Positions 28,619 through 63,135 of a stretch of 64,000 nt of DNA are shown in pieces. The translations under genes were made by a program, and so were the position numbers. Source of the stretch: Squalus acanthias. Lineage: Eukaryota. Under the pieces are notes generated by a model. That model made no database searches and was not told the DNA's origin. It saw nothing but the letters and a program-made list of their open reading frames with translations. The first letter of the stretch is position 1. Every line of letters begins with the position of its first letter. Location: positions 126,792,001-126,856,000 of the forward strand of contig CM059431.1 in assembly GCA_030390025.1 (NCBI GenBank), given 5' to 3'.

Positions 28619-31481
28619 TGTAAGGGGGATGTGTCTCAGATGGTGCTGGTGCGAGGTTAGGCCTTCGTTCCCTATACTATTGCTTGCTCTGGTCTCCGGC
28701 CAGCCTTTTTGCAATAAGCACCTGTGAGTGGTTCGACCCACTCGCCCTTATGGTTCTGACACCTGGACTTAGATGCAAGGAGCAGTAATGCAGAGAAAAA
28801 CTCAAATAGATCCGGTTGAATAGCACAAAATGAAAATCTTTATTGCATGGCGTCTAAAATCATGAAATACATGTCATAGGCGCAAATCAAAGAGAGTACA
28901 AGTATACATACTATGGTCTATGGAAATGGAGAACACACGGCACATCGTAAAAAGGGGAACACATTATACCTTAACCTTATAAAAACCACCCTCCCTTAAC
29001 AATACCTACACTACGTCTGGATTTGTAGGATCGGAAATCATGCTCACCACTCGTTTTACTTCGGAGATTTTTAAAGTGAGGCACTCAGCTCGTTTCGCTG
29101 CAGCAGCCTGACTGTCACGTGTTTGGAAGGGTTTCTGCACCCCACTTGTTTACTTTCACTGCTGCAAAAAGCAGGCCAGACTCTCTGTTGTCATGAAGAA
29201 ATCGATGGAACTCAAAACGTTGTAAAATTCAAAGAAAAGTCTTCCTGTGTTGCGGTACAGGTAGAAGTCTGTAGAACTCAAAGAAGAGATCTGTACTTAT
29301 ATTTTCGGGCGCGGTTGGGGTTTACTGACCGTGGCGGCACGTGGAATTTCTTCTCGTATTCTTCTCGTCTCGTCTCCTCGGGCCTCCGGGTCCAGACACC
29401 GTTTACCGACACTCGGGATGGTGTACCCTGTTACTTGCCCTTGTCGGGGCGGCTCATACCGATTGAGCTCCACCCAACACTTGAATAACCGACCAGTGCG
29501 GCTAAGAGTCAAGAGTCAACAAAGTCCAGAGAAACACAAGAGGCTGACCGTCCAGGAAAGCGATACCAGAGAATAAGAGTGATGGACATTTGTTCTCTAT
29601 AGTTATAGTGATGTGTCCGTTTTATCTCCCGCTCAAATCTTAATGTTTTTCCTTTGTGTAATATTGGCGCTCAAAACTCCCAGCATGGGGCGATTATCTT
29701 CTTAACGGGTTTCGGTAGCACCTGAAACTGGCCAACTATCCGTTAATGTTTCTCTCATTGTAGAGCCAGCCAGGATGTGTATACATAGATACATAGATAC
29801 ATAGAAGATAGGAGCAGGAGTAGGCCATCCGGCCCTTCGAGCCTGCTCCGCCATTTAATGAGATCATGGCTGATCCTCCAATTCAGTATCCCGTCCCCGC
29901 CTTCTCTCCGTAACCCTTAACCCCTTTTGCCTGTAGAAATATATCTAATTCCCTCTTAAATATATTTAATGAGCTGGCGTACACTGCCCTCTGTGGCAAT
30001 GAGTTCCACAGGTTCACCACCCTCTGAGTGAAGAAATTCCCCCTCATTTCTGTCCTAAATGGTTTAGCCCTTATCTTAAATTATGTCCTCTAGTTCTGTT
30101 CTCACCCGCCAAGGGAAACATTCCTTCTGCATCTAGTCTGTCTAGACCTGTCAGAATTTTATACACTTCTATGAGGTCCCCTCTCAATCTTCTAAACTCC
30201 AGTGTGTACATCCCTAAACTACATAGTCTCTCCTCATAGGTCAATCCCGCCATTCCTGGTATCAGCCTGGTGAATCGCCGCTGCACCCCCTCCATGGCAA
30301 GAACATCTTTCCTCAGATGAGGCGACCAAAACTGTACACAGTACTCGAGGTGTGGTCTCACCAGTGCCCTGTACAGCTGCAGCAAGGTATCCCTGTTCCT
30401 GTATTCCAACCCTTTTGCTATGAAGGCCAGCATACCGTTTGCCTTCTTGATCGCCTGTTGCACCTGCATGCTCGCCTTCAGTGACTGGTGTACAAGAACA
30501 CCCAGGTCTCTCTGTACTTCCCCCTCTCCCAATTTATTGCCATTTAAATAATAATTTGCCCTCCCGTTCCTGCACCCAAGGTGGATAACTTCGCACTTGT
30601 CCACATTATAGTGCATCTGCCATTTATCCGCCCAATCACCCAGTCTGTCCAAATCGCTCTGGAGCTTCCTGGTCTCCTCCTCTGAGCCCACCCCCCCTCC
30701 TAGTTTAGTGTCGTCTGCAAATTTGGAAATGCTGCATCCGACTCCCTGATCCAGGTCATTAATGTAAATTGTGAACAGCTGGGGACCCAGGACAGATCCC
30801 TGTGGTACCCCACTTGTTACTGCCTGCCATTCAGAAAATGAGCCGTTTATTCCAACTCTCTGTTTTCTATCTGACAGCCAGTTCTCTATCCACGTCAATA
30901 CTTTCCCCTTTATCCCATGAGCTTCAATTTTCCCTGCTAATCTTTTATGTGGGACCTTATCGAAGGCCTTTTGGAAGTCCAGGTACACCACATCTACTGG
31001 CTCTCCCCCATCTATTTTACCAGTTACTCCCTCAAAAAATGAATCGTCTCCTCGACTGGTTTTGGGGCCCCCCGAATACTGGCTTAATCACCCGTAAATG
31101 TCTCTCTCATTGTTGAGCCAGGGGGGTATTTGTGTATTGATGTGTCTGGATGGGCCTTCGATTGCCCAGTTCAATGATCCTTACTGTGCATAGGAAAACG
31201 ATTCCAGCACTTATATCATTGCTATTGTTCAAAATGCAAACGGGTTGCATCCTGTCTTTATCAGTGTTTACCAAGTATGATCCAATCTTATACTGAATGT
31301 ATATTCAACGCCATCTTGTCTGCCCACTGTGTTTCTGGAAGCTTCTGCCACGATGCGCGGTGGCCATTTTACAGGCTTCTGTGTCCTTTATTAACAGGAC
31401 AGCATTTCGTTTAATAAAACTGATCAAATGAATCTGCTTCTCTCATGTTATTTTGAATCGCGATAATTGCGAAACTCTACA
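28619..31481 (-). mobile_element. Solo LTR family A, copy 4, with a CR1 insertion
   Basis: TGTAAG...CTACA; TSD AGAG at 28615-28618 and 31482-31485. Confidence 0.85.
29781..31038 (-). mobile_element. Young 5'-truncated CR1 LINE with an open 306 aa RT frame (30071-30991)
   Basis: [42 protein letters not shown]. (CTATGTAT)n tail at 29781-29804. Confidence 0.92.
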
Positions 31482-33007: not shown

Positions 33008-34152
33008 TTTGTGTTCTAGGACAGATTTGCGTGCACCTTTGGAAGTAGCTTAGTGAGTCGAAGTGAATAGTGAGACAAAACGGTACGCCCTGCAATGGTG
33101 ATGAGTGTGACAGGAATGGCTTGGGCATTGTAGGGATGCTTTATGCTGTTGGTGTGGGGTGGTGCCAACCTGGCGCATCATGTGGTAGCCAGGGTGTACA
33201 GCATCAAGTGAAGTAAATCTGGCCATGGTGAGGCCATCCCTGGCCTCCCGGGCAGCAATGTGGTCGGGTGCTAATGCCCTGTGTCCTGTGCAGCATCAGT
33301 TGACTGCGGAGAAGGTTGGTGTTGCTGCTGGTGCTGCTGGTGTGCCTGGTGCTGCTGGTGTTGGGGCTGATCGTGGTGAGACTCTGAGGACCAAGGTAAG
33401 AGAGTATAAGGGGCACCCATGCTGATGGAATAGATGACAGATGAAGTAGAGATGACAGAAGCGATCTGTCAATGGTGGAGAGGTAATGAGGTCAGACTGG
33501 ATGGAGACTTGTGTAAAGACTTGCAGCATGGTGAATCTGTTGTGGAAATGCAGTGAGGAAGAGTTTGTGGCTGAGGGAAGATATCTCTGTAAGGTGGGAG
33601 CTTTTACTTTACATCTGAAGCTGTCAACTCAACAGCTGATTCAATGGCCACTGAACTCCCGCCTCAGCTTATCAGAAGTGATCCACGACCAGCGAGGACC
33701 CTGTGGGCGAGCACATAAAATCAAAAGTTGAGCTCAAATGTGTTCTTAATGATCTCTAAACAAAGTCATAATGACCTGAATTGGGTCCCCCGCCGCTGCG
33801 TGTCGGGTCTGCTCCACGCTGACAGACCTGACATCAGAGAAAGGCACCTGGCAGCGTGTTCACAACGGGGTCCCGACCCACTGGGGGAAAAAAACACTTT
33901 CCCACCAGACCCGACACCGCTGACCACCCAGAAAATCTCGGACATGGTCACCATTACTGATACTAGCTTTTTTATTCCAGATTTATGTAATTAATTGAAT
34001 TTAAATTCCCCAGGGGTGGGATTTGATCTAATGTCTTATGCAGATTATAACTCCAGGCCGCTAGATTACTAGTCCAGCAACATAACCACTTTGCTACCAT
34101 TCCCTTCAAATAATATTGATATTGGATGACACTGAGCTGAGGCTTATATGAT

Positions 34153-35572
34153 TTCACCGCACGTCAATTACAAGAGAAATGCAGGGAACAGCACCAACCG
34201 CTGTACATGGCCTTCTTTGATCTCACAAAGGCCTTCGACACTGTCAACCATGAGGGATTATGGAGTATCCTCCTCAAATTCGGCTGCCCTCAAAAGTTTG
34301 TCACCATCCTCCGCCTGCTTCACGACGGCCTGCAAGCCGTGATCCTGACCAACAGTTCCACCACAGACCCAATTCACGTACGAACCGGGGTCAAGCAAGG
34401 CTGTGTCATCGCACCAACGCTCTTCTCGATCTTCCTTGCTGCAATGCTCCATCTCACCCTCAGTAAGCTCCCCACTGGAGTGGAGCTATATTACAGAACA
34501 AACGGGAAACTGTTCAACCTCCGTCGCCTCCAGTCCAGATCCAAGGTCGTCCCATCCTCTGTCGTCAAGTTACAGTATGCAGACGACGCTTGCATCTGCG
34601 CTCACTCGGAGGTCGAACTCCAAACCATCGTCAACACCTTCACCGAAGCATACGAGAGCATGGGCCTTACACTAAACATCCGTAAGACAAAGGTCCTCTA
34701 CCAACCTGCCCCCGCCACACAGTACTGCCCCCTGATTATCAAAATCCACGACAAGGCCTTGGACAATGTGGACCACTTTCCATACCTCGGGAGCCTACTG
34801 TCAACAAGGGCAGACGTCGATGATGAAGTCCAACACCGCCTTCAGTGTGCCAGTGCAGCCTTCGGTCGCCTGAGGAAGAGAGTGTTTGAAGGACCTCAAA
34901 CCCGGCACTAAGCTCATGGTCTACAGAGCAGCAGTGATACCCGCCCTGCTGGATGCCTCAGAGACATGGACCATGTACAGCAGGCACCTCAAAGCACTGG
35001 AGAGCTACCACCAACGCTGCCTCCGCAAGATCCTGCAAATCCATTGGCAGGATAGGCGCACCAACGTCAGTGTTTTCGCTCAGGCCAACATCCCCAACAT
35101 CGAAGCTTTGGCCACGCTCGATCAGCTCCGATGGGCGGGTCACATCATCCGCATGCCCAATACGAGACTCCCAAAACAAGCGCTCTACTCGGAGCTCCAA
35201 CACGGCAAGAGAGCCCAAGGTGGGCAGAGGAAATGCTTCAAGGACACCCTCAAAGCCTCCTTGAAAAAGTGCAGCATCCCCACCGACACCTGGGAATCCC
35301 TGGCCCAAGACCGCACAAAGTGGAGGAGAAGCATCCGGGAAGGCGCCGAACACCTCGAGTCTCTTCGCCGGGAGCAAGTGGAAGCCAAGCGCAAGCAGCG
35401 CAAGGAGCGTACGACAACCCAAGCACCCCACCCACCCGCCCCTTCAACCAGCATCTGCCCCACCTGTGACAGAGACTGTAGGTCCCGCATTGGACTCATC
35501 AGTCACCTGAGAACTCATTTTTAATGTGGAAGAAAGTCATCCTCGGTTCCGAGGGACTGCCTAAGAAGAAGG
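34153..35572 (+). mobile_element. RTE-clade LINE, 5'-truncated, one frameshift near 34890
   Basis: ORFs 34207-34911 (FFDLTKAFD, GVKQGCVIAP, QYADD) and 34886-35524 (SETWT, LRWAGH, C-terminal CPTC...H..TH). (AAG)n tail; possible TSD ATATGAT. Confidence 0.92.
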
Positions 35573-46227: not shown

Positions 46228-46704
46228 AAAAGAAAATACTGCAGAAGCTGGAAATCTGAAATAAAAACAGAAAATGCTGGAGATACTCAGCAGGTCAGGC
46301 AGCATCTGTGAAGAGAGAAACAAAGTTAACGTTTCAGGTCAATGACCTTTCATCAGAACTGGAAAAAAGCAGGAAATGGCACAGATTTTTAAGCAAGTGT
46401 AGGGGCTGGGAAAGGGGGGAGGGGATGAAAGAACAAAAGGGAAGGTCTGTGATAGGATAGAAGGCCTTGAATATCTCTTAATGTCTCTTAACCTCTCCTG
46501 CCTTCTATCCTATCACAGACCTTCCCTTTTGTTCTTTCATCCCTTCCCCCCTTTCCCAGCCCCTACACTTGCTTAAAAATCTGTTCCATTTCCTGCTTTT
46601 GTCCAGTTCTGACGAAAGGTCATCGACCTGAAACGTTAACTCTGTTTCTCTCTTCACAGATGCTGCCTGACCTGCTGAGTATCTCCAGCATTTTCTGTTT
46701 TTAT
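46228..46704. mobile_element. Non-autonomous Penelope-like element made of two inverted pLTRs (~210 bp hairpin arms)
   Basis: ~46257-46466 is nearly perfectly complementary to ~46500-46708. Flanking duplication TTCAATTC(A/C)GTTCA. Same pLTR family as the GIY-YIG-bearing element at 49515. Confidence 0.85.
46605..46641 (+). ncRNA. Minimal type I hammerhead ribozyme motif (mirror copy on minus at 46324-46360)
   Basis: AGTT-CTGACGA-A-AGGTC(ATC)GACCT-GAAA-CG-TTA-ACT: CUGANGA and GAAA boxes, stem II and a palindromic short stem III, as described for Penelope pLTRs. Confidence 0.75.
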
Positions 46705-47704
46705 TTCAATTCCGTTCAGTTATACTTGTAGCTACTGGGAAAACTGGTAGGTATTGTCACACTATAGTGTCACTGCAAAGAAATGCATAATTACCAGAGC
46801 AAGGAAAAGCACTGTCACTTGGCCTTCACATAGCAAATATTTAACTCAGCAAGATAGCTGCAGACAAGGCTAGAATCCATCAGGAAAATGAGGAAAAGTA
46901 CAATGCCTGATTTTCTTCTTTGTGGCTGGATTTGACATCTAATATACACATTTGTGCATTGGCCACGCCCCATGTGCTCCTGTGGGCATAAACTATTTTC
47001 TTGCCTTTGGCAAATCGCAGTCATTAATATAATACATTGTGCTGTGAACAACAGCTCTGCATTTTTGGGAGGAAGCGCTTTTTAATTTATATTCTTAATG
47101 AACTTTTTTTGCCTGTCAGTGCTGGGGACTGAAACATTTTTAAATGTTGGTGTCCAATATAATATCTTCAAGCAAAGATAGGTACTCTAGACAATGTGCC
47201 TTAAAGCTAAACACAAAAGAGCATTATATTGAAGTAATTTAATAATTTTCCCCCCCATATTTTTCATGTTAACCATTGCTTTTCTGGGTGAGATTGCTAA
47301 TGATGCGCAATTGCAGTTCAATTCTGAGCGGTTTTGTGTAGTAGACATTTGCCTAACAGGAAGTGGATTGGGACAAACCAAATTCAAGTGGTACTCCAAC
47401 AACTGGCAAAAAATACATGTTCAACCTAATAATCTGTGCAAAATTAAAACTCAGTTACTGGCAGTTTTAATATGGCATGCAAATCCATCTCATTTACTAA
47501 AGTCGCTTGTGTTCATTTAATGGGCAAAATTTTGCGGTCAGTGGTTTCTTACACTTGCCCTTGCCCACAGACTTTCTATGGGATTTTGCACTAGAACATA
47601 TGTGATTAGGAAGCTATTTCGGCGTGCCGCCCTCTACAGGGGATCTGGGACCTGTGTGAACAAGGCAAGCAATTGTGTATCTCATTAACCAATCAGATTG
47701 AAGA

Positions 47705-48273: not shown

Positions 48274-49514
48274 GGGGGAGAAATTCAGTTGGTTAGCACC
48301 TCCCGTTAGCGCCTGGCAGGGCCGCTAACGAGGCGCTAATGCAGTAGCGCCAGGCCGAGGAGAATCCAGCGCCGCATGCCAGGGAGAGGAGGCGCCTTCT
48401 CAAGCAGCCGGATGGTGGCTCCAGGGGCGATATTTAAAGGGATCAGTCGCAGCTTTCAGGTCAGTGCTGTTTCATTGCTTCCTTGTCAGTTTGAGATTGT
48501 GCAACAGTTTCATTCAGTCATTTCAAGGATTTTTTTACTTTCAAGAGTGGCTACTCAAATTTAGTGACATTTATTCTGACAAGGTATCAAAGTGCTACAC
48601 TTGGTAACATTAACGGGGGCTGTACTGGCAGTCGACCTCGCCCTCCAGGATCTACGGCGGAGGGAGCGGAGGCAGCGAGAAAGACTGGAACATGTGGCCA
48701 GAGGGAGGAGGAGGGCCATCAGGGCTCTTAACAGGAGGCCTTACCCTCCAAGGGTATGCCCAGAGCACTTCTCCAACCTCCAATTAAATGAGGAGCAGTG
48801 TATTAGAAGGCTCTGCTTCACCAAGGAGGTGGTCACAGAGCTCTGCCACCTCCTGCAACCAGACCTTGAGCCTCAGATCAGGTCGACCACGGCTCTCCCA
48901 GTAGCAGTCAAGGTCACCGTCGCCCTCAATTTCTTCGCCAGTGGATCCTTCCAGTCTGCAACAGGAGATATAGCTAACATCTCGCAGTTCGACGTCTATC
49001 GCTGCATCCGGGAGGTCACAGAGGCTCTCTGCAGTAGGAGAAGCGACTATATTTCCTTCCCCATCACCAGAGAGAACCAGGACGAACATGCATGTGGCTT
49101 TGCCAGGATAGCGGGCTTCCCCATGGTGCAGGGCACCATTGACTGCACTCACGTCACTTTGCGAGCACCGCATAACAATCCTGAGATCTTCCGTAACCAC
49201 AAAGATTACCACTCACTTAATGTGCAGTTGGTGTGTGACCACAGACAGCGAATCCACACTGTCAATGCTCGCTATCCTGGCAGCAGCCACGATGCCTTCA
49301 TCCTGCGCCAGACAGGTGTGCCAGCAGTCTTCCAGCCACCACGTCAAGCTCGGTGCTGGCTGGTCAGAGACAATGGCTGTCCGCTCTCCACCTGACTCAT
49401 GACTCTCTTCCGCAACCCCAACACTCCTGCTCAGCACTCATATAATGAGAGCCATCCCGTCACCAGGAACATGATCGAGCAGACCATGGGGGTGCTCAAG
49501 CAATGTTTCCACTG

Positions 49515-50510
49515 TAACAGAAAACGCTGGAAAACTCAGCAGGCGAGGCAGCATCCGTGGAGAGAGAAACAGAGTTAACGTTTCAGGTCGAAGACCTTTC
49601 ATCAGAACTGGAGACAGCAGGAAATCAAATAGATTTAAAGCAAGGATAAAGCTGGGAAAAGGGGGAGGGAATGAAAGAACAAAAGGAGAGATTAAGAGAC
49701 ATTAAGAGACATTAAGAGATATTCAAGGCATGAGGTGGTATTAATGTGACAGGTTAAGGCTGAAAGAAGTGTGAAATGCAATGGCAGAATGAAGGACAGC
49801 TGCCAGCTTCTAGGAGGAAAAAAAAAGGGGGGGGGCAAATAAAAGGGTGGATGAGAAAATAAAATATAAATGTGATGGGGCTAAGGTTATGATCTAAAAT
49901 TGTTGAACTCGATATTGAGTCCAGAGGGCTGTAGCGTGCCTAAACGAAAGATGAGGTGCTGTTCCTCGAGCTTACGCTGCGCTTCCGTGGAACAGTGTAA
50001 TAGGCCGAGGACGGTAAGGTCAGAGTGGGAGTGAAGCGGTGAATTAAAGTGACAGGCGACCGGGAGCTCGGGGTCCCCCTTACGGACTGAATGGAGGTGT
50101 TCCGCAAAGCGGTCACCCAATCTGCGTTTGGTCTCCCCAATGTAGAGGAGACCACATCGTGAGCAGCGAATACAGTATACTAAATTGGCAGCTGTCCTTA
50201 ATTCTGCCATTGCATTTCACACTTCTTTCAGCCTTAACCTGTCACATTAACACCACCTCTTGCCTTGAATATCTCTTAATGTCTCTTAATCTCTCCTTTT
50301 GTTCTTTCATCCCCTCCCCCTTTTCCCAGCTTTATCCTTGCTTTAAATCTATTTGATTTCCTGCTGTCTCCAGTTCTGATGAAAGGTCTTCGACCTGAAA
50401 CGTTAACTCTGTTTCTCTCTCCACGGATGCTGCCTCGCCTGCTGAGTTTTTCCAGCGTTTTCTGTTGTTATTTCGGATTTCCAGCATCTGCAGTATTTTG
50501 CTATCGTATT
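49515..50510 (-). mobile_element. Penelope-like element: GIY-YIG endonuclease 3' fragment plus pLTR, with an inverted pLTR at the 5' truncation
   Basis: ORF 49887-50210 NLVYCIRCSRCGLLYIGETKRRLGDRFAEH...PSGLN. ~49515-49805 is inverted at ~50187-50467. 13 bp TSD AATGTTTCCACTG at 49502-49514 and 50511-50523. Confidence 0.92.
50372..50408 (+). ncRNA. Minimal hammerhead ribozyme motif (mirror copy on minus at 49573-49609)
   Basis: AGTT-CTGATGA-A-AGGTC(TTC)GACCT-GAAA-CG-TTA-ACT. Confidence 0.78.
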
Positions 50511-50700
50511 AATGTTTCCACTGCCTTGACTGCTCGGGAGGAGCCCTCCAGTATTCGACTGAGCGGGTGTCCCATTTCGTCGTGGTCTGCTGCATGCTCC
50601 ACAACTTGGCCATCATGAGGGCGCAGCCCTTGCCAGCAGGGATTGCGGGACCACCTCAGGAGGAGGAAGAGGGACAGGAGGAGGAGGATGAGGATGAAGA

Positions 50701-50733
<33 letters not shown>

Positions 50734-51182
50734 GGAGGGACAAGAATGAGGGAGGAGGCAGCCACTCAATCGGCCTTCTAGAAGGGTAGTCTGTGACTGC
50801 CTCATCAGACTGCGGTTCCAATAATTAAACCCCAGATCCCTGTTGCTCAACACATCCCCATCATTCCATTCCTGTTGCAGGCCATATCACAGCACAAAGC
50901 TGAAATGAGAGACACCACAAAATCATCCAAAGCCAATTAATACATTTATCAATAATCAGTGAACAAATATTTATAACAACAATATTGGCTATTCACCCTT
51001 GTGCAATCTCTTAGTGCCCCTCGTTACAGTGCCTTTGCCTACTCTAGTGCTCGATGAAGTGTTGGCACAGTGGCTGCAGCACGGCTGGTGGAAGGCTGGT
51101 GAGTGACTGTGCGGGAGACTTCAGATGGCCTTGTAGGACGCCCTCAACCAGCTGAAGACCTGGAAGGCCCAGCTGTAGACTG

Positions 51183-51376
51183 TGTGGTAACACAATACAG
51201 CTTCCTGTGACTCGAACTTTATTGCATCACTTCCTGTGATTAGTCCAGGATAAATACTGGACTGATCAGTTGGATCCTGGAGAGGCATAGAGTAAGACCT
51301 CTTTTGTATGTAGCACCTTTTTAGTTGATTAAAGCTTACTTTAAGTTCACCACGCGTAAGGCTCATTCTTACGACA
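51183..51376 (+). repeat. Gypsy 5' LTR
   Basis: Identical by eye to 59638-59831. ATAAATA at 51250-51256; ATTAAA at 51328-51333. Confidence 0.95.
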
Positions 51377-51454
51377 ATTTAATCAACTTTGGAAAACTTC
51401 GCACTCAAACTTTTTGGACGAACTCGGAACTGAGGATCCAGGGAATCACCCATC

Positions 51455-51915
51455 ATGGAAAACATCCTTAAACCATCACGTCTTGACTTGGACCCAAACA
51501 CCCCAGCAGCCGGTAAGGTGTGGAAACACTGGTATCGCACGTTTGACAATTTTCTTGAATATTGCAAGGCTGATGATGACTCAAAGTTGCGGATACTCAT
51601 CAGCTGTGTCACCCCGAATGTATTTCAGTATGTGGAGGAATGGGGCAGTTACGAGGAGGCAATTCGGATGCTTAAGAGACTATATACTAAGACACCGAAT
51701 GAGGTCTATGCCAGACATCTACTAGCTACAGCCCAACAAGGGCCGGAGGAATCCATTGATAAATTCCTCCAAGAGCTTCGCAGACTTAGTATGGACTGTA
51801 ACTTTCAGGCAGGCCTCAGCTGAGCTGTACCGTGAAGAAATTATCCATGATGCTTTCATCTGCGGGCTTGCCTCCCCATTTATACGCCAGCGTCTACTGG
51901 AAAGTAAGACACTTG
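51455..51915 (+). pseudogene. gag: Gypsy gag N-terminal part, frameshifted at ~51810 and interrupted by Harbinger B
   Basis: MENILKPSRLDLDP...ARHLLATAQQGPEESIDKFLQELRRLSMDCNF. A shifted frame continues SAELYREEIIHDAFICGL...RQRLLESKTL and rejoins ELQRAYDMACSLD after the Harbinger TSD (~56120). Confidence 0.88.
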
Positions 51916-52260
51916 GGGGGGAAAATTAGGTCACGCCCATTTGGGGCGCAAATATCGTCTGGACGCAAATATTAGCGCCTGGCGCTAATTATCGGCACTG
52001 ACTGGAAACTTCACTTTTACCGCCCCGGGAGGTGAGTGGAGCGCTAAATCAGGCGCTGCACACCTGTCTTAAGGCGCAAAGGCCGAGCAGTGAGGCGCGA
52101 GCGCAGCGCAGCTGCTGCCAGTTAGCGAGGGAACACAGACACACTGGCGCCGGCCACTTCTTAAAGCGGGGGGGGCCAACTTGCTCCCCAGCCACACCCT
52201 GCTCATTGCAGCCTTGAATCTCGGCCTGGAGAGACCTGTGAATCCATTTTGCTGCCAAGG

Positions 52261-54133
52261 ATGGAGAGGGTGAGAGAACGAGCTCATCGCTTCACCGAGC
52301 GGGCCTTGGATGCTCTGGTTGGCGCGGTGGAGTGCAGAAGATGTATACTCTTCCCTGAGAGTGGCAGGAGGCCTTTGCCACGCGAGTTCAGAAGAGTGTG
52401 GAGGGAGGTGGCTCAGAGCGTCTCCTCCAGGAGCATGGTGCCCAGGACCCATACTCAATGCCGCAAAAAGCTCAACGACCTCACTCGGGTCGTCAGGGTG
52501 AGTGGCTTTTTCTCAATACCTCTCCATCCCTCCATCTCAACCTCACTCTATGGCCAGAGGGTCTTAAAACCCCAATGCACAACACTCATCCAACACCTAT
52601 GGCCCTTTCATGAAACACATACGCACATTCCACACTTTGCATACAGTAAGGGCTATTCACCTATGGGAGGCACATCAGGCAAGACCATGGCTGCATACAG
52701 TAAGGGCTATTCACCTATGGGAGGCACATCAGGCAAGACCATGGCTGCATACAGTAAGGGCTATTCACCTATGGGAGGCACATCAGGCAAGACCATGGCT
52801 GTATATTTACTCAGATGCTGTCCTTTTTCTTACAGGCCAAGCTGGCGCATAATCAGAGACAGCAGCAATGGACAGGTGGAGGGCGGCCTCAGCTGCAACC
52901 CCTCAGCGATCTTGAGGAGCGCGTCCACAGGATTGTGGCAAGCCGGGTGATCGGTCCCGTCGCCACTGGAGACGCCGACCCCGTTCTGGACAGCAATGGT
53001 AAGGTCATCACCTTTTTGTCCTCTGTCCTTCCACTTGTCCCTCACAACACCAGCCTTTGACACTTTCAATCCAACTTGCTAACTCGCTGCACTTATTCCT
53101 CCCTTACTGCCACCCTGTCCTCACGCTAAAGACACTCTTGTACCTCCCTGCTTTCAGATGGTGATTCACCAGCTGAGGAGACGGGCCCTGAATCTGCCAC
53201 TGGGAGTGATGCTGCAGCTGAGGAGGAAGAGGAAGCCGGAGCATCAGTGCCACCCTCTCCCGAGGAGCCCATGCCCACACTGGGAACACGCCTTCCCTGG
53301 AGGGGAGCAGGGGGGAAGGGTCTGATGAGGGTGAAGCTCCAGGACCCAGCGGGCTGCAGCAACGCCATGGGGGTAGGGAAGAACGGGGGCCTTCTCCCCA
53401 GAGGGAGAGTATGCCAGACACTCCTACTGCAATGGACGCAGAGGAGGAGCGGCTGATCGCAGATATGAACACCCAGGCGGTGGGCATGCACACTGAGCTC
53501 ATGGGTGCAGTGGGAAGGGTGCCCGAATGCATTGAGTCACTGACAAGGAGTGTGGAGCACTTCGCTGTAGCACAGGCAGATGCCACACTAACGCTTAGTG
53601 CTGCAATTCAGTCACTGGCTGCCGTGATCCCATCTCTGACTGCTCTCATGCAGACTCATATTGAGGCCACGCGAGCACAGACTGCTGCCAACCTCGATGG
53701 TTCGTTCACATGTCCCTGGGGCTGTCACCGCGCCGCAGCAGGCCAGCAATCTGTTCTCCAGCAGATTGCTCCGGATGCTGAAGTGCTGCCCCGTGGGAGT
53801 GCCAGTGTGTCGGGCGAGCAGGGAGTTGCTGTCCTCTCTCACGATGACAGCATTCCTGCTGCCAACACTGTCACTTCTCCACTGCACTTGCCACCGCCTG
53901 TAGGACAGACTGCTGCCGCCCATGCAGACTTGGTGCAGTCTGCAGCCGGGCCCTCCAGGCCCAGAACTGGTCGAGGCCGTCCTTCAGGGGCATCTGCAGT
54001 GTCAGGGTTTGACGAGCAGCAGCCTTCCACCAGTCTTGCTGCAGCCACTGAGGTCCCATTACGGAGGAGCAGTAGGGTTAGAAGGGGGGAAGTGCGCAAG
54101 GGAAGGAGATCACCCTCGAAGGGCAAAAAGTAG
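52261..54133 (+). CDS. Myb/SANT-like (MADF) DNA-binding protein of Harbinger B; exons 52261-52497, 52836-52998 and 53158-54133; one frameshift near 53265
   Basis: RFTERALDALV...WREVAQSV...RTHTQCRKKLNDL trihelix motif. Canonical GT-AG sites with compatible phases (0, then 1); basic C-terminus. Confidence 0.85.
52639..52800 (+). repeat. 54 bp tandem repeat, three perfect copies, in MADF intron 1
   Basis: Unit GCATACAGTAAGGGCTATTCACCTATGGGAGGCACATCAGGCAAGACCATGGCT. Confidence 0.95.
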
Positions 54134-54445
54134 GAGGTGTGACAAAATGCTGGTCATTTTTTTATTAAAGGTCGAGGTTCATGGTCCAACTTTTGTTTAG
54201 TGTTTTGGACATTATCTCCAGGTTGTGAGAACCAGTTATGTTATTGACTGTTTTTTTGTGTTTATTTCTATGAGTTTGTCATGAGGAATTGACACACACA
54301 GAGTTTGTAAAATAAATAAGTTTCTGTATTCAAAATATACATGGTTGGTGGTTGGAATTATTGGTGCCTTGGCCGGCTTAGGGGTTGCGTGCTGGGTTCA
54401 TTAATGTTGTTAGCAATGGCAGAAGCCATTTCCACAGCAGGGGCC

Positions 54446-55606
54446 CTAGAAGCGGCTTGCTATTAGCCGTTGACGGACGGCCCTTGCAGTTTCACCTTTG
54501 TGGGCCGCCCTCCCGCCTTGGTGCTGCTGATGATCATCCTCCTCGTCCTCTTCCTCCTCTTCCTCCTCCTCCTCTAGTGGTGCTCCAAGGCCTGGTGGCA
54601 TTGGCTGGGTCCTGAGGATTGCCATGTTATGCAACATGCAGCACACGACTACGAAGTTGGATACTCACTCAGGCGAGTACTGCAGGGCTCCTCCAGAATG
54701 GTCGAGACAGCGGAACCGTTGCTTCAGCACGCCGATTGTGCGCTCAATTATGTTCCTGGTAGCTTGATGGCTCTCATTGTACTGCAGCTCAGCAGGGGTG
54801 TTGGGCGTACGGAGCGGTGTCATCAGCCAGGTGCTCAATGCATACCCCTTGTCCCCGAGAAGCCAACCAACTGGCTGATGCGGTGCCTCGAAATGTTCTG
54901 CCACAGTAGTCTGGCGCAGGATAAAAGCATCGTGGCAGCTGCCAGGATAGTGGGCATTGACAGCGAGTATCAGCTGTCTGTGGTCACAGACCAACTGAAC
55001 ATTCAAGGAATGGAACCCCTTTCTGTTCCGGAATTCCTCGGCATTCTCATGCGGAGCACGCAAAGCCACATGCGTGCAGTCAATGGCGCCCTGCACCATG
55101 GGGAAGCCCGCAACCCTCGCAAAGCCCAGAGCGCGGTCACGCTGCTTGTCTGGGGTCATGGGGAAAGAGATGAACTCTCGTCTCCTTTTAAAGAGGGCAT
55201 TTGTGACCTGCCGGATGCAGCAATGCACCGCGAACTGGGAGATATTGGCGAGGTCCCCAGCAGCAGCTTGAAATGAGCCAGTAGCGTAAAAGTTGAGAGC
55301 CACTGTGACCTTCACTGCCACCGACAGAGACGTCCTGGACCTCAGTTGAGGCTGCAGATCTGGCTGCAGCAGGTGGCAGAGCTCAGTGACCACCTCCTTG
55401 CTGAATCGCAGCCTTCGCAAACACAGCTCCTCAGACATATGAATGTAGGAGAGCTGTTCATGATATACCCTGGGAGGGTAAGCTCTCCTGTACATACGCC
55501 TGTTGGCCCTCCTCCGTCTGGCCATCATTGCCACTCTCTCTCTGCGTCTCTGTATAATCCGATTCAGCTGGAGCAGGACGACGCCCCAAATCAGTGCAGC
55601 CCCCAT
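54446..55606 (-). CDS. Harbinger DDE transposase of element B, one premature TGA at 54665-54667
   Basis: Catalytic motifs GAIDCTH, LGDKGY and RNIIERTIG are intact. The same frame continues VSNFVVVCCMLHNMAI...IASRF* after the stop. Confidence 0.9.
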
Positions 55607-56140
55607 AGTCTCTTTGCAAGCAAAGTAATGAAGGACAGCAACTAAAGTACTAGCAAAGTTAGGATCAATAGGCAAAACTACCTCACAAAGCGTTGAGTCA
55701 ATGCAGAAGTCTCTCTTTCTCTCTCTCCGAATCTCTCTCTCTCTCTCAGAACGAGTGGTGCAAAAATGTCGACCACAGAAAAAGACAGGAAGAGGCCCCC
55801 TTTAAATAGCGCCCCCCCCAGCCCCACAGCGATTGATAGCGTTCCAGTCTTCCGGTCGTTGGATGCGCCAGGCGGTAAGGCAGGGGGCGCCACTCAATTT
55901 CCGCTCCGGGGCGCCACAAGGGCGTTGCACCATGGAATGACGTCACAATCTGCGCGCGCAGGTGGTCGCAGCGGTAAGTTTTAGCGCCGCCGCACAATGT
56001 CTAGTTAAGTTCCCGAGCGGTTCAAACATCGCTGCGCCCGGGCGTTAGCGGCTTTGCGCCCCATTAGTGCCCTCTTAAGGCGCTAACGGGATGCGCAACC
56101 AACTGAATTTTTAACCCTTGAGCTTCAGAGAGCTTATGAC

Positions 56141-59100
56141 ATGGCTTGCTCTCTAGATCTGGCAAATAGAAATGCAGACCTTTATGCAGTGCCCAGACCT
56201 CAGTCTACTGCCTTAACTACAGTCAGGCAATTTAAGAGGCCACAGGTGAACTCTATTAGGGAGGACTTTATCCCTGACGATCAATCTGATAACTTCACTG
56301 ATGAAGAGGATGATGACCCCACTGTGGCAGCCTCTTGGCAATCTAAGAAATGCTTCTTTTGTGGTGATGAGTTTCACCCTCGGAAATTCTGCCCTGCTCG
56401 CAATGCGTTTTGCAGTCATTGCAACAAAAAGGGTCATTTTGCAAAGGTTTGCCTATCAAGAGCCTCTACGAGGGCTTATCAAGCTAAGTCCTACCGAATT
56501 GCCCCGGTAAGGGCCTATCAAGATGTTCCGGCTAAAATCTATCGTGCTTCCTCTCGGGTTTCCTCTCGAAGAAACACAACTAGAGTTTCAGCCACTCTTT
56601 GTGCAACGACACCAATTACAGCTGCTTGTCCTCAGAACCTATTCCATGCAGCGACAAAAGCATCAATTAATGGACATACTTTAGATGCCTTAATTGACTC
56701 AGGTAGCTCTGATAGTTTCATTAGGGAACAGATTGTTGCAGAGTTAAAGCGACATGTTTTCCCATCGGACCAGGCAATTGCGATGGCTCAGTCATCACTT
56801 AATACCAGAATTTCTGGCTTTTGTATGGTTGAAATAAAACTTAATGGTCACAGGTATCCCTCCACCCGGCTTTCGGTGCTCAAGGACTTATGTAGTGATC
56901 TTATCTTAGGGCTGGATTTTCAAAAGCAGCATAAGAAGCTCACCATTGAGTTCGGCGGATCCAAACCTGAACTCACTATTTCTAATATACTACCTCGATT
57001 ACCGTTCTGTGCATTGTCAGCAGCTTCACTGGATGAACCCTCACTGTTTACCAGTATCCCTCCTCGATGCAAACCGATTATAACAAAGTCACGACGTTTC
57101 AGTCAGGAAGACCAGTCTTTTATTGCGGCTGAGATTTCTTGGCTTTTAGCAGAGGATATCATCGAGCCTTGTTCGTCGCCATGGCGCGCCCAGGTCGTTA
57201 TTGTTAAGAACCCTCTACAACCTCACAAGAAACGGCTGTGCATTGACTATTCACAGACCATCAATCAATATACGGACTTGGACGCATACCCATTGCCGCG
57301 CATCGATGATATGGTTAATAAACTGGCTGAGTACACGGTGTTCTCAACATATGATCTGAAAAGTGCCTATCATCAGGTACCCTTGAAGGTCTCAGACAAG
57401 CAGTATACGGCCTTTGAAGCCAATGGACGGCTGTATCAATTTCGTCGCCTCCCCTTTGGGGTCACTAATGGAGTGGCTGTCTTCCAGCGAGCAATGGATG
57501 ACCTGGTCAAACAGGAAGACTTGAAGGATACGTTTCCTTATCTGGACAATATTACTGTCGCAGGTCGCAATCAGCGGGAACATGACGCCAATCTCCAACG
57601 ATTTTGGGATGCACTCCAGCACCGTAATTTGACATTAAATGCGGCTAAATCCATTGAGTCACAACCAACCATCAACATCCTTGGCTATTGTGTGGGCAAT
57701 GGCATCATTAAACCTGACCCTGAAAGGCTTCGCACACTCCAAGAACTCCCGCCACCTCAGAATCCGGCCTCCTTGCGCCGGGCCCTCGGCCTGTTTGCAT
57801 ACTATGCTAAATGGATTCCTAACTTCTCGGACCGAATCCAACCTCTACTGAAGGCCAGCACATTCCCACTAGACACAGCGGCTGTTGCAGCCTTTAACCT
57901 CCTGAAAAAACAGTTGGAGAAAGCGGGTCTTCACTCCATCGATGAGAGTCTTCCTTTTGTTGTTGAGTGTGATGCCTCGGAGGTGGCAATCTCGGCCACT
58001 CTGAATCAGGAAGGTCGTCCGGTGGCATTTTTGTCCAGGACTTTTCAAGGGGCTGAGCTACATTATCCTCCAGTCGAAAAAGAAGCTACAGCCATCATAG
58101 AGGCAGTATGGAAGTGGAGTCATCTCCTAGCTAGCCAGCACTTTACCTTAATCACGGACCAGCGATCGGTCGCCTACATGCTCGATAATCGAAAACGGAC
58201 CAAAATTAAAAATAATAAAATCCAGCTTTGGCGGCTGGAATTGGCCTCTTTTGGTTACACCGTCCACTATCGACCTGGCAAGGAGAATGTGGCTCCGGAT
58301 ACCCTCACACGAGCATTCTGCTCCGCCATGGCACCCTCTACGCTCGTAGACATCCATGATGGGTTGTGTCATCCGGGCGTTACTCGCATGCTACACTTCG
58401 TGCGGTCCCGAAATCTCCCATTCTCTACCGGGGATGTAAAGAAGATGTGCTCGGACTGCAGAGTCTGTGCGGAATTGAAACCTCAGTTTTTCCGCCCCTC
58501 GGGTGGTATACTCATACATGCGACCCAGCCAATGCAACGGCTTAGCATCGATTTTAAGGGGCCGTTGCCCTCTTCAACTCGCAACACTTATCTATTGACC
58601 ATGGTCGATGAGTATTCCCGTTTTCCATTTGCCTTTCCCTGTCCCAATATGCTGACGACCACGGTTATCAGCTGCCTTGAGCAGGTATTTGCTTTCTGTG
58701 GCATGGCATCCTATGTTCATTCGGATCGGGGCCCTTCTTTTATGTCAGGAGAACTCAAGGCCTATCTCTCGGAACGGGGTATTGCTGCCAGCAAAACGAC
58801 GCCTTATCATCCGGTCGGGAATGGGCAAGTCGAACGTTTTAACGCTATCATCTGGAATGCGGTACGTCTGGCTTTGAGATCTCGGGGCCTACCCAACCAG
58901 CAATGGGAAGCAGTACTTCCAGACGCATTACACTCCACACGGTCCCTCCTTTCGACCGCCACAAATACGACGCCTCATGAACGGTTCTTCCGATTTCAGC
59001 ATCACTCATCCTATGGGATATCTCTCCCGTCGTGGCTGACTGCACCGGGACCAGTGCTACTCCGAAGATATGTCTGGGCGTCTAAGAATGACCCCCTGGT

Positions 59101-59590
59101 AGATGAGGTTGAGCTCACTGACGTCAACCCTACCTACGCCTATATTCGGTATCCTGACGGTCGGGAATCTACCGTGTCATTGCGGGATCTGGCTCCCTGC
59201 CCGCCGAAACATAGAGGGACACCAGGGGATGATATTGTACCAGGCACATCTCTGGGCTCGCCAGGTGCCTCTCATCACGATCTGGATCTGACGCCGGCTG
59301 GTACCTCACTCCAGCGTGCCGACCTGGGGCAGACTGACTATGAGCCCGTCGGGGCTCGCACGCGCAGCCACGATCCACCCTGTACCGTACGCTCGGAAAC
59401 GGATCTGCCACAGCCCTGCCCGACACCCGTTCGGGCACCAGTACACAGTCAGGATCGTCCTGACCCCTCACAGAGCGGGCTGGATCACTCGGACTCTGGT
59501 CCACGGCCTGCGGCGGGTAAACGGGCTAGGGGCCCTCTACCGCTACGAGAATCCAAACGGGTGCGGCTCTCCCTCGTCCAGCGGCTATGA
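56141..59590 (+). CDS. pol: Gypsy gag C-terminus (two Cys-His knuckles) fused in frame to pol: protease, RT, RNase H, integrase
   Basis: CFFCG...HPRKFC and CSHCNKKGHFAKVC; LIDSGS; LPFGV and YLDN; ECDASE, EKEA, ITDQ; HDGLCH...CRVC, SIDFKGP, HSDRG, QVERFN. Uninterrupted 1149 aa. Confidence 0.95.
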   Translation: MACSLDLANRNADLYAVPRPQSTALTTVRQFKRPQVNSIREDFIPDDQSDNFTDEEDDDPTVAASWQSKKCFFCGDEFHPRKFCPARNAFCSHCNKKGHFAKVCLSRASTRAYQAKSYRIAPVRAYQDVPAKIYRASSRVSSRRNTTRVSATLCATTPITAACPQNLFHAATKASINGHTLDALIDSGSSDSFIREQIVAELKRHVFPSDQAIAMAQSSLNTRISGFCMVEIKLNGHRYPSTRLSVLKDLCSDLILGLDFQKQHKKLTIEFGGSKPELTISNILPRLPFCALSAASLDEPSLFTSIPPRCKPIITKSRRFSQEDQSFIAAEISWLLAEDIIEPCSSPWRAQVVIVKNPLQPHKKRLCIDYSQTINQYTDLDAYPLPRIDDMVNKLAEYTVFSTYDLKSAYHQVPLKVSDKQYTAFEANGRLYQFRRLPFGVTNGVAVFQRAMDDLVKQEDLKDTFPYLDNITVAGRNQREHDANLQRFWDALQHRNLTLNAAKSIESQPTINILGYCVGNGIIKPDPERLRTLQELPPPQNPASLRRALGLFAYYAKWIPNFSDRIQPLLKASTFPLDTAAVAAFNLLKKQLEKAGLHSIDESLPFVVECDASEVAISATLNQEGRPVAFLSRTFQGAELHYPPVEKEATAIIEAVWKWSHLLASQHFTLITDQRSVAYMLDNRKRTKIKNNKIQLWRLELASFGYTVHYRPGKENVAPDTLTRAFCSAMAPSTLVDIHDGLCHPGVTRMLHFVRSRNLPFSTGDVKKMCSDCRVCAELKPQFFRPSGGILIHATQPMQRLSIDFKGPLPSSTRNTYLLTMVDEYSRFPFAFPCPNMLTTTVISCLEQVFAFCGMASYVHSDRGPSFMSGELKAYLSERGIAASKTTPYHPVGNGQVERFNAIIWNAVRLALRSRGLPNQQWEAVLPDALHSTRSLLSTATNTTPHERFFRFQHHSSYGISLPSWLTAPGPVLLRRYVWASKNDPLVDEVELTDVNPTYAYIRYPDGRESTVSLRDLAPCPPKHRGTPGDDIVPGTSLGSPGASHHDLDLTPAGTSLQRADLGQTDYEPVGARTRSHDPPCTVRSETDLPQPCPTPVRAPVHSQDRPDPSQSGLDHSDSGPRPAAGKRARGPLPLRESKRVRLSLVQRL

Positions 59591-59623: not shown

Positions 59624-59637
59624 GGGGGGGGGGAGAA
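59624..59637 (+). promoter_or_regulatory. Polypurine tract
   Basis: G-run followed by AGAA immediately before the 3' LTR, preceded by a T-run. Confidence 0.9.
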
Positions 59638-59831
59638 TGTGGTAACACAATACAGCTTCCTGTGACTCGAACTTTATTGCATCACTTCCTGTGATTAGTC
59701 CAGGATAAATACTGGACTGATCAGTTGGATCCTGGAGAGGCATAGAGTAAGACCTCTTTTGTATGTAGCACCTTTTTAGTTGATTAAAGCTTACTTTAAG
59801 TTCACCACGCGTAAGGCTCATTCTTACGACA
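59638..59831 (+). repeat. Gypsy 3' LTR
   Basis: Identical by eye to the 5' LTR. Confidence 0.95.
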
Positions 59832-59836
59832 GACTG

Positions 59837-62800
59837 CACCACCTCAGCATGGGCAGCAGCAGTCAGGGCTGGCTGGATGACAGGCAGCAACAAGGGCAAT
59901 GGCGGAGTGGCAGCAGTAGGAGCAGGAATGCTGTCATCCTGAGAGAGGGCAGCAGGTTCCTGCTCCACTGACCACTGCCACTCCCCCGGGGCAGCACCTC
60001 AGCATCACTACCAATCTGTTGGAGAACAGATTGCTGGCCTGCTGTGACACTGTGAAAGCCCCGGTGGATGGTGGTCGACCCAGCCATGGTGGCAGCAGTC
60101 AGAGCTTGCGTGGCATCAAGCTGAGACTGCATGAGAGCAGTCTGAGAATCGATGGCACCAACCATAGATTGCAGTACAGCACTAAGACATTGCGTGGCTT
60201 CCGCCTGTGCTGAAAAGGAAGCTGCGACATGGCCCATCACATGTGGCATGAGGTCTTTTTTTTATTTGTTCATGGGACCTGGGCATCGCTGGAAATGCCA
60301 GCATTTATTGCCCATCCCTAGTTGCCCTTGAGAAGGTGGTGGTGAGCCACCTTCTTGAACCACTGCAGTCCGTGTGGTGAAGGTACTCCCACAGTGCTGT
60401 TAGGGAGGGAGTTCCAGGATTTTGACCCAGTGATGATGAAGTAACAGCGATATACTTCCAAGTCAGCATGGTGTGTGAATTGGAGGGGAACTTGGAGGTG
60501 ATGGTGTTCCCATGCGCTTGCAGCCCTTCTCCTTCTAGGTGGCAGAGGTCGCGGGTTTGGGAGGTGCTGCCGAAGAAGCCTTGGTGAGTTGCTGCAGTGC
60601 ATCTTGTAGATGGTACACACTGCAGCCACGGTACGTCAGTGGTAGAGGGAGTGAATGTTTAAGGTGGTGGATGGGGTGCCAATCAAGTGGACTGCTTTGT
60701 CCTGGATGGTATACATATTCTTGAGTGTTGTTGGAGCTGCACTCATCCAGGCAAGTGGATAGTATTCAATCACACTCCTTACTTGTGCCTTGGAAAGGCT
60801 ATGGGGAGTCAGGAGGTGAGACACTCGCCGCAGAATACCCAGCCTCTGACCTGCTCTTGTTGCCACAGTATTTATGTGGCTGGTCCAGTTAAGTTTCTGG
60901 TTAATGGTGACCCCCAGGATGTCGAAAGTGGGGGATTCGCTGATGGTAATGCCGTTGAACGTCAAGGGGCGATGGTTAGACTCTCGCTTGTTGGAGATAG
61001 TTATTACCTGGCACTTGTGTGGCACGAATGTAATCTGCCACTTATCAGCCCAAGCCTGAATGTCGTCCAGGTCTTGTTGCATGCGAGCATGGACTGCTTC
61101 ATTATCTGAGGAGTTGCGAATGGCACTGAAAACTGTGCAGTCATCAGCGAACATCCCCATTTTTGACCTTATGTTGGAAGGAAGGTCATTGATGAAGCAG
61201 CTAAAGATGGTTGGGCCTAGGACACTGCCCTGAGGAACTCCTGCAGCGATGCCCTGGTTCTGTGATGATTGACCACCAACCACCACAACCATCTTCCTTT
61301 GAACTAGGTATGACTCCAGCCACTGGAGAGTTTTCCCCCCGATTCTCATTGGCTTCTGTTTTACTAGGGCTCCTTGATGCCACACTTGGTCAAATGATGC
61401 CTTGATGTCAATGGCAGTCACTCTCACCTCAACTCTGGAATTCAGCTCTTTTGTCCATGTTTGGACCAAGGCTGTAATGAGGTCTGGAGTCAAGTGGTCC
61501 TGGCGGAACCAAAACTGGGCATCAGTGAGCAGGTTATTGGTGAGTATGTGCTGCTTGATAGCACTGCCGATGACACCTTCCATCACTTTGCTGATGATTG
61601 AGACGAGACTGATGGGATATGTAATTGGCCGGATTGGATTTGTCCTGCTTTTTGTGGACAGGACATACCTGGGCAGGTTTCCACATTGTCGGATAGATGC
61701 CCGTGTTGTAGCTGTACTGGAACAGTTTGGCTAGAGGTGCGACTAGTTCTGGAGCACAAGTCTTCAGCACGACAGCCGGGATGTTGCCGGGGCTGATAGC
61801 CTTTGCTGTATCCAGTGCGCTCAGCCGTTTCTTGATATCATGTCTGGGTCGCCACAGTCTCTCTGGGAGTTCACCATCCTTTGCAGACTGCTAATGATGG
61901 GCCCCATGGTGTGCGCAGAGCTCTGTGCAATGTTGGACGCGGACTCCTCCACGCTCCTCACCATTGCCGACAGGCTCTCGGGCACCCTTGCCATTGCTCC
62001 TATCATCTCCGTGTGCATGCCCATCACTCTTCTTCTGAAGGCCTCCCCATCGGGGTCCTCATCTGAGTTCTGTGCAGCAGAAATCGAGCTCAAACTCACC
62101 CTCCGGGGAGCTGGATCCCGAGTTACCCTTCCCCCCTGGCCTTGCTGCAGCCCGCTCATCCCCGGTGCATCACCCTGTGCAGATCCCGCTACTATACTAG
62201 CCTCTAAAGAACACGTAGTGCCAGTATCTGAGCTGGTGCCTGTGGGTGAGACATGCAGTGACATGGTGTCTTTTTCCTCCTCCTCTTCTTCCACCTCACT
62301 CTCAAAGGTGCCCTCAGGGACAGGCTGCTCAGCTTCTTGCTCATTATCTGAAAACATAAGGGCACAAGAGTTGGGTTAAGGTGAGGGGAGGGGGGCAGGA
62401 AGGGAGAAATGCATGCATGCAGCATGATTATCTGGAAATTGGGAAAGGCTTGTGGGTGAGTGGGAAGTGGGATGTGAGAAGAAGGAGTAGGGATGAACAT
62501 ACCGTTTTTGTCCCCAAGGGTTCAACATCACCGGTGGCCATGGCGCCCACCACCTGGCGCCCAATGATTTGCAGCATCCTTTCCTCCAGCGCAGACAGTG
62601 GTTGGGTGTCAGGTTGTCCCCTGCCTGTGCATTCCTGCTCCCTCCTGTTGTGAGCCACCTTGGCCTGCAAGAGAGAGGAAAGTGTGTGAATGAGTGTGGA
62701 GCAATGGGTTTGGGAGATGTGCCTTCTATAGTTGAATAGCTGTCACTGTGTGCAAGGTGTGAGATGTGGGTGTGAGTGTTGGTAGGTAGAGATTGTTGGT

Positions 62801-63135
62801 GGGTGAGTGCTGAGGGTGTGGAGCTTTGGGCAGTGTGTGCAGACTGAGGTTCAGATGGTGGTATGTAGCATTTGTTGAGGCATTGACTCACCCTGACCAC
62901 CTGCGTGAGGTTGTTTAATTTCTTCCTGCACTGTGTGTGGGTCCTGGGGACCACAGAGCTGCCCGAGACCTGCTGGGCTACCTCTCCCCACATGGCGCGG
63001 AAGACTTGCGGCGAGGGCCTCCTGCCACTTGCCGGGTACAGCACCGCCCTCCGTCTCTCCACAGCGAAGACCAAGGCCTCCAATGCCTGATCACAGAATC
63101 TGCGAGCTCTCTCCCTGGGTCAATGATCTGCTATA
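59837..63135 (-). pseudogene. Myb/MADF pseudogene of Harbinger A (exons ~63135-62892, 62664-62503 and 62347 downward; 3' end at ~51010-51182)
   Basis: WGEVAQQV...RTHTQCRKKLNNL. Same exon structure as element B; split by the LINE and the Gypsy. Confidence 0.85.
60256..61841 (-). mobile_element. LINE RT fragment (family of 2697 and 22267) inserted in MADF exon 3 of Harbinger A
   Basis: ORF 60636-61586 with [11 protein letters not shown] and MFADD. T-run tail at ~60256. Confidence 0.9.

Follow-up and report, generated by a model that had tools for sequence, protein, structure and literature searches.

A Ty3/Gypsy retrotransposon in the window (the whole 64,000-nucleotide stretch of DNA that was analysed) raises the question of how its reverse transcription could begin, as its 5′ long terminal repeat (LTR) is followed by the bases ATTTAATC, without TGG, which excludes a tRNA 3′ end as the primer. 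The only TGG nearby lies 14 nt further on (51390-51392) and is TGA in most copies (51392 G>A; contigs from four runs). In the position where a primer would anneal, bases 51378-51388 (TTTAATCAACT) are the exact reverse complement of bases 51323-51333 (AGTTGATTAAA) of the LTR itself. Considering how this pairing recurs across families, we regard it as likely that minus-strand DNA synthesis in this lineage is started by the element's own RNA instead of a tRNA. The features of the window copy are the following.

51178..51182, + strand: left target-site duplication GACTG, 5 bases repeated at 59832-59836.
51183..51376, + strand: 5′ LTR, 194 nt, TGTGG...CGACA, 100% identical to 59638-59831.
51323..51333, + strand: tract in the LTR, the proposed self-primer; exact complement of the presumed primer-binding site (PBS), with covariation in relatives.
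51334..51346, + strand: hairpin 1, GCTTA CTT TAAGT, adjoining the 3′ end of the tract (RNA fold).
51355..51373, + strand: hairpin 2, CGTAAG(G)...CTTACG, in presumed U5 (sequence and RNA fold).
51377, + strand: a lone A that separates the LTR end (CA) from the PBS; CA plus 1 nt in 21 of 21 loci with the helix.
51378..51388, + strand: putative PBS, exact complement of 51323-51333.
51455..51914, + strand: first part of the gag-pol frame (MENILKPSRLDLDPN...), shifted by an insertion of 1 nt near 51811.
51915..56116, strand not assigned: nested 4.2-kb Harbinger-like insertion in gag, with CTT flanks at 51912-51914 and 56117-56119.
52261-52950, + strand: Myb/SANT ORF inside the nested insertion (domain match).
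54665-55606, − strand: DDE_Tnp_4 ORF inside the nested insertion (domain match).
56120..59590, + strand: remainder of gag-pol, with knuckles, protease, reverse transcriptase (RT), RNase H and integrase, without a chromodomain.
About 56351-56452, + strand: two zinc knuckles, within the gag-pol remainder.
About 57539-57550, + strand: RT motif YLDN, within the gag-pol remainder.
59624..59637, + strand: polypurine tract GGGGGGGGGGAGAA, abutting the 3′ LTR.
59638..59831, + strand: 3′ LTR (LTR identity), with the second copy of the tract at 59778-59788.
59832..59836, + strand: right target-site duplication GACTG, repeat of 51178-51182.

The two terminal LTRs have TG..CA ends, and the coding order between them is that of Ty3/Gypsy elements: protease, RT, RNase H, zinc-binding domain and integrase core, with two CX2CX4HX4C knuckles upstream of the protease. 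Ty3 was the best solved relative of the coding part in the window (E = 1.7e-58). Gag and pol form one frame of 1315 amino acids in intact copies, and the window copy is defective, carrying both the 1-nt frameshift insertion and the nested Harbinger-like transposon, which is specific to this copy and missing from the others compared. Within the nested insertion, three repeats of a 54-nt unit lie at 52638-52805.

This is a very young family, and an abundant one in the host genome. Among 822 first-look candidates in this 3.7-Gb genome, the LTR and leader (278 nt) were about 100% identical in all 40 places scored, the interior of the window copy was 97.1-98.8% identical to copy L001, and the 1315-amino-acid frame was unbroken at 33 of the 38 places scored elsewhere in the genome. 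The element is a young, defective copy of a high-copy Ty3/Gypsy retrotransposon without a chromodomain. We also looked at runs under five coded organism labels (A-E), which contained 44-64% of the sampled 31-mers of window positions 51183-51800; near-identical copies are thus present under several species labels.

In a family that is multiplying, the RT active-site box was surprising. It reads YLDN, not YxDD, in the window and in 19 of the 22 aligned polyproteins, and among the stored protein hits P0001-P0120 it ended in N in 86 and in D in 10, with the pattern unmatched in 24. The string 'YLDN' together with 'reverse transcriptase' was not found in the literature searched.

Several other repeats lie around the Gypsy copy. 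Older Harbinger-like sequence seems to surround it (48580-49392, 59863-60249 and 62379-63119), with part of a DDE_Tnp_4 gene on the upstream side and an ORF of Myb/SANT type on the downstream side, and the ORF right after the 3′ LTR resembles an ORF inside the nested insertion. The repeats at 46285-46707 and 49534-50474 match at 91%, and a simple GAGGAG repeat is found at 50700-50745, about 440 nt upstream of the element. Three RVT_1 ORFs, at 30074-31087 (−), 34141-34908 (+) and 60639-61730 (−), have no RNase H or integrase partners and are probably fragments of non-LTR retrotransposons.

We asked how specific the complementarity is in the window copy. The helix is exactly 11 bp long, as the bases on either side (T51322/T51389 and G51334/A51377) do not pair, and the 11-mer occurs three times in the window, at the site and in both LTR copies, against 0.01 expected from shuffles. 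The tract starts within an initiator-like TTAGTT (51321-51326) and ends in ATTAAA (51328-51333). When the RNA from 51323 to 51392 (70 nt) was folded, it gave a three-way structure whose outermost stem is formed by tract and PBS (−15.4 kcal/mol, z = −3.14), and 2 of 200 shuffles folded as well. The first-pass annotation had already described, from the letters, a 5′ LTR that ends at 51376 with no TGG after it, the perfect complementarity of the two arms, the position of the tract start inside TTAGTT, the ATTAAA in the tract and a loop hairpin CGTAAG/CTTACG. All of these are present, the LTR end being borne out by the LTR comparison as well and the hairpin arms lying at 51355-51360 and 51368-51373.

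We then looked at relatives. With the RT-RNase H-integrase region, about 1,450 relatives at E <= 1e-10 were found among the candidates scored, the best of them 57-88% identical, and the named hosts of the protein relatives include cnidarians (sea anemones, a soft coral and stony corals), molluscs (mussels), crustaceans (a shrimp and a copepod), a tunicate and a nematode. Metagenome contigs scanned with an aligned set of 22 polyproteins gave 79 loci with 43-69% identity. True LTR pairs in the relatives measured 164-231 nt and mostly ended in ...AACA. In three of the metagenome contigs (L031, L041 and L053), the terminal direct repeats fall in coding sequence; these are circularly permuted assemblies with one LTR, as would be expected from LTR collapse by the assembler or from tandem or circular source forms.

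The helix was scored in 27 loci (26 metagenome loci and the window) in which the gag start was detected and at least 80 nt lay upstream. Results showed a helix score of at least 10, with the 3′ arm one base after CA, in 21 of the 27, window included, over a length of 10-19 nt. In every locus with definable LTR pairs, the CA before the PBS is the end of the LTR. This constant position agrees with the claim of the first-pass annotation that the 3′ end of the tract pairs beside U5, which is the geometry of a primer. The pol identity of the helix carriers to the window was 44-68%, and the 21 loci contain 19 distinct tract/PBS pairs. The six loci without a clear helix are L044, where merely 92 nt of upstream sequence was available, L083, which has a 10-of-11 helix of different sequence, L091, L096 and L103, which look decayed, and L102. 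Helices were also found in two extra loci, L040 and L077, from a motif-blind scan without gag, and in L155, a second, distinct family in the same genome as the window, giving a total of 24. In L155 (contig C6, minus strand), the helix is 12 bp long (CAGTTGATTAAA) and a clear TATAAATA box lies 90 nt upstream of the tract. A variant subfamily, seen in contigs from four runs, also has a 12-bp helix, owing to an extra A before the tract.

If the two arms pair with each other, they should change together, and covariation across relatives, the comparison to which the first-pass annotation had pointed, was positive: tracts differ by family, and each is paired with its own PBS. Tracts such as AAGCTGTTAAAA, AAGTTTATTAAA, GAGTCGTTTAAA, AGCTAGTTAAA, TTGCTGATTAAA and GTGGATTAAA are all matched in this way. 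In a MAFFT alignment of 17 sequences, 92.3% of the cells were paired, against 20-49% when the partner was slid by 1-3 columns; changes on both sides were found at 10 of the 14 helix pairs, and none of 500 shuffles reached the observed covariation scores. RNAalifold recovered the same helix unprompted, with 9 of 13 pairs compensatory. Over the first 11 positions (209 cells) there were 200 Watson-Crick pairs, 8 mismatches and a single G-U. Moreover, at positions 6-13 a tract made on average 7.6 of 8 possible Watson-Crick pairs with its own PBS, compared to 4.7 with the PBS of another family.

The family-specific matching is as expected under self-priming, and the near absence of G-U pairs is better explained by templated recopying than by selection acting on RNA structure alone. 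If each cycle recopies the PBS from the tract used as primer, young copies should have a perfect Watson-Crick match whatever the sequence. Perfect helices were in fact found in most copies whose LTRs are 99-100% identical (the window, L084, L036, L037 and L038). Mismatched helices were found in L033, L064, L078 and L035, with LTRs 92.7-99.1% identical, and no helix was recovered in L091 and L096, with LTRs 93.6-96.8% identical.

From these comparisons, we infer a course of events in which the helix forms in the RNA, the RNA is cut, the tract is the RNA 5′ end and cDNA synthesis starts there. The tract 51323-51333, at or near the 5′ end of the genomic RNA, would fold back onto 51378-51388, and this pairing would close a three-way structure whose loop contains two small hairpins. 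The RNase H of the element would then cut after the last A of the tract, as in Tf1, whose first 11 RNA bases pair with its PBS and are separated by RNase H between bases 11 and 12 (PMC7175516). The freed 3′-OH would copy A51377 and then U5 and R. Plus-strand synthesis would recopy the PBS from the primer, so that tract and PBS would be made identical in every cycle, whatever the sequence of the tract. In addition, should plus-strand synthesis run to the very end of the primer, the RNA start would be expected at the helix's outer edge, which in the window would be A51323, within TTAGTT.

Some observations count against self-priming. Depending on the family, helices measure between 10 and 19 bp; their inner end is fixed and they are lengthened on the outer side. 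The five inner pairs (TTAAA/TTTAA) are nearly invariant, and the G at position 10 is invariant. Under a simple rule of the "first 11 bases", the start site would thus have to differ from family to family. TATA-like boxes are distant from the tract, lying 72 nt upstream in the window (51251) and 90 nt upstream in L155, distances too great for transcription to begin at the tract, and a TATA box was not consistently present at about 30 nt upstream. To these are added the six loci without a clear helix and the reports of tRNA sites in two possible relatives, Steamer, the nearest named element in the literature, and MchSLE1, to which we return below.

Among other explanations, the one that survives best is that the helix is RNA structure only, hiding ATTAAA in the 5′ R or controlling packaging or translation, while another molecule is the true primer. 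We consider this unlikely. In its favour, the tract closes with AATAAA or ATTAAA in 12 of 22 distinct families and with one-base variants in most of the others, and 13 of 18 loci have a predicted hairpin that begins directly behind the tract, some of them with matched changes (GCCTA/TAGGC, ACCTA/TAGGT, GCTTA/TAAGT). The two loop hairpins are predicted in the window copy; over whole loops, folding across loci was no better than in shuffles (mean z = −0.55). A purely structural role does not agree with a 3′ arm placed exactly where a primer would anneal in all 21 helix loci, none of which shows another visible primer site, nor with a single G-U in 209 cells, unusual for a helix kept by folding alone. 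Moreover, a poly(A) signal 6-11 nt from the cap would not need masking, and the canonical hexamer is missing in 10 of the 22 families. The first-pass annotation had also suggested that the duplex masks a poly(A) signal: the ATTAAA is indeed inside the tract, and the masking idea is weakened by these hexamer counts, leaving it as a possible second role. A poly(A) function of the hexamer is plausible across these families and not universal. No poly(A) tails were found on the ends of metagenome loci L031-L109.

Still less probable is priming by a fragment of a tRNA, or by some other small RNA of the host, with a chance resemblance to the LTR tract, a reading to which we give very little weight. 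The mussel element MchSLE1, Steamer-like and of similar architecture, has been described with a 'putative PBS for the Asn tRNA' (PMC11046912), and the screen of host tRNAs, in which the longest match was 4-6 nt, covered two isoacceptors, Lys(TTT) and Cys(GCA), too few to exclude a match. Against such a primer, there is no TGG at the PBS, and the 19 PBS sequences in 21 loci each match their own LTR, which metazoan tRNAs could not track. A site that differs by family and yet always matches its own LTR excludes one conserved tRNA or tRNA-fragment primer. No tRNA genes were found within the window, and a search of 51100-51500 against Rfam, with E up to 1, gave no family match, which also counts against a small-RNA primer. 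Finally, that the complementarity arose by chance or as a low-complexity A/T-rich by-product can be put aside as hardly credible: the inner five pairs are A/T only and, being nearly invariant, give no covariation signal, but only 0.01 matches are expected per window, and this reading is already contradicted by the recurrence in 24 loci, by the covariation of the outer positions and by a strand-flipped scan under the same flanking rule, which gave L084 alone, a genuine element in reverse orientation.

Priming by the element's own RNA remains the preferred reading. We also asked to which lineage the element belongs. The Tf1/sushi group, where such priming is best known, is treated as chromoviral (PMC6317226, PMC3601003). 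Searches for the Chromo domain (Pfam, E up to 0.01-0.05) found it in none of the 4 polyproteins searched (window, P0003, P0031 and P0070), bearing out the first-pass annotation on this point. When chromoviral references were sought by a Chromo-domain search of the genome of the window, host CBX-like genes were obtained and no chromoviruses. The missing chromodomain and the two zinc knuckles suggest that the element does not fit the chromoviral Tf1/sushi group.

By architecture and by literature descriptions, the lineage resembles the Mag C-clade (SURL/Steamer-like). It has a short LTR, TGTGG...CGACA ends, a single gag-pol frame and two knuckles, traits that are typical of this clade and not defining. 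Mag C contains SURL, is found in metazoans including vertebrates, and has a mean LTR of 174 nt with an LTR 3′ motif AYANAACA (PMC3601003), while Steamer and Steamer-like elements of the C-clade have LTRs of 177-187 nt, a single ORF and two zinc fingers (PMC8905726, PMC11046912). More generally, C-clade elements are described as about 4.4-5 kb long, with LTRs of about 174-187 nt and TGT...AACA-type ends, and as widespread in marine metazoans and vertebrates (PMC3601003, PMC8905726, PMC11046912). Steamer-like relatives have been annotated 'K02A2.6-like' (PMC8905726, PMC11046912), and the nearest named Atlas clusters include this same label, which we take as a lead only. The double-knuckle gag that the first-pass annotation had called Mag-like does contain two CX2CX4HX4C knuckles; the name Mag-like comes from architecture and literature descriptions. 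Its further suggestion of a separate tRNA-independent lineage is supported by own-LTR pairing across families in elements without a chromodomain.

To our knowledge, experimental proof of self-priming exists for fission-yeast Tf1-type elements only, and elsewhere, in chromoviruses and one plant copia lineage, it is inferred. According to the sections consulted of PMC7175516, PMC4600332 and PMC6317226, self-priming is known for Tf1, Tf2 and Tj1, and proposals extend it to further Tf1/sushi elements, to Tcn1 and to the TAR lineage of plant copia elements; the proposal for Tj1 of S. japonicus is that of PMC4600332. A printed report of self-priming was not found for Mag, SURL, Jule or Steamer-type elements in the full text searched, a coverage that leaves out most subscription journals. 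What appears new here is that the Tf1 principle would be at work in another Gypsy lineage, one that is very widespread and has a conserved module of its own. We put forward tentatively, as a possibility that falls somewhat short of being the probable one, that self-priming arose or was kept in a second major Ty3/Gypsy branch, pan-metazoan and chromodomain-less, probably the Mag C-clade/Steamer-like group in a wide sense, where one module of 10-19 nt would combine the initiator region, the primer and often a poly(A) hexamer.

If this is true, the range of self-priming would be widened by its signature in chromodomain-less Gypsy elements to cnidarians, molluscs, crustaceans, tunicates and a vertebrate-sized genome, and tRNA-independent priming would be neither a peculiarity of chromoviruses nor one of fungi and plants. 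Elements independent of host tRNA would not be exposed to silencing by tRNA fragments directed at the PBS (reviewed in PMC7472051), and freedom from both could help them to become established in very different hosts. On the practical side, LTR-element finders that require a tRNA PBS will mis-score such elements, and the tRNAs assigned in print to some of their relatives may have to be checked again. The many natural variants of one primer/PBS module, together with a near relative said to use tRNA-Leu, could also provide a system for studying switches of priming mode.

Within the Mag C-clade, we compared the lineage by description with SURL (M75723.1), Steamer (KF319019) and MchSLE1 (OR712106). 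Unlike the window lineage, Steamer is reported to have a 12-nt tRNA-Leu PBS directly after its LTR (PMC8905726) and MchSLE1 a putative tRNA-Asn PBS (PMC11046912). The Steamer tRNA-Leu PBS motif was absent from all 154 loci examined, and the start of the MchSLE1 5′UTR had no match, with up to 3 mismatches, in 155 loci. The Steamer motif was matched 11 times in viral contigs, without pol similarity, and these matches were set aside as chance. If the lineage lies in or beside the C-clade, the tRNA-Leu site reported for Steamer means that the priming mode differs between near relatives and would have switched between them.

The Tcn1 clade and the Ty1/copia TAR lineage of plants (Houba, Osr-1) are similar to the window lineage in that self-priming is inferred from sequence and no tRNA-type PBS is described in the sections consulted of PMC6317226. 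They differ from it in belonging to other superfamilies or clades with plant or fungal hosts, none being a metazoan chromodomain-less Gypsy.

The closest parallel is with Tf1 and its relatives. Like Tf1 and Tf2 of S. pombe, Tj1 and the Tf1/sushi group, for which the consulted sections of PMC7175516 and PMC4600332 describe no tRNA PBS, the window lineage has a site after the 5′ LTR that is not of the tRNA type. As in Tf1, this site complements the element's own LTR, over 11 nt in Tf1 and 11 nt in the window copy (PMC7175516), and the stem-loops between the two arms, described for Tf1 and Tj1 (PMC7175516, PMC4600332), may have a counterpart in the two hairpins predicted in the window copy. The lineage differs from Tf1/sushi in the missing chromodomain and in its gag with two zinc knuckles, and its LTR measures 194 nt in the window, where LTRs of the Sushi training set average 572 nt (PMC3601003). 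Moreover, unlike Tf1, it has a helix whose length varies between families and a tract whose 3′ end is a conserved TTAAA, often within a poly(A)-type hexamer.
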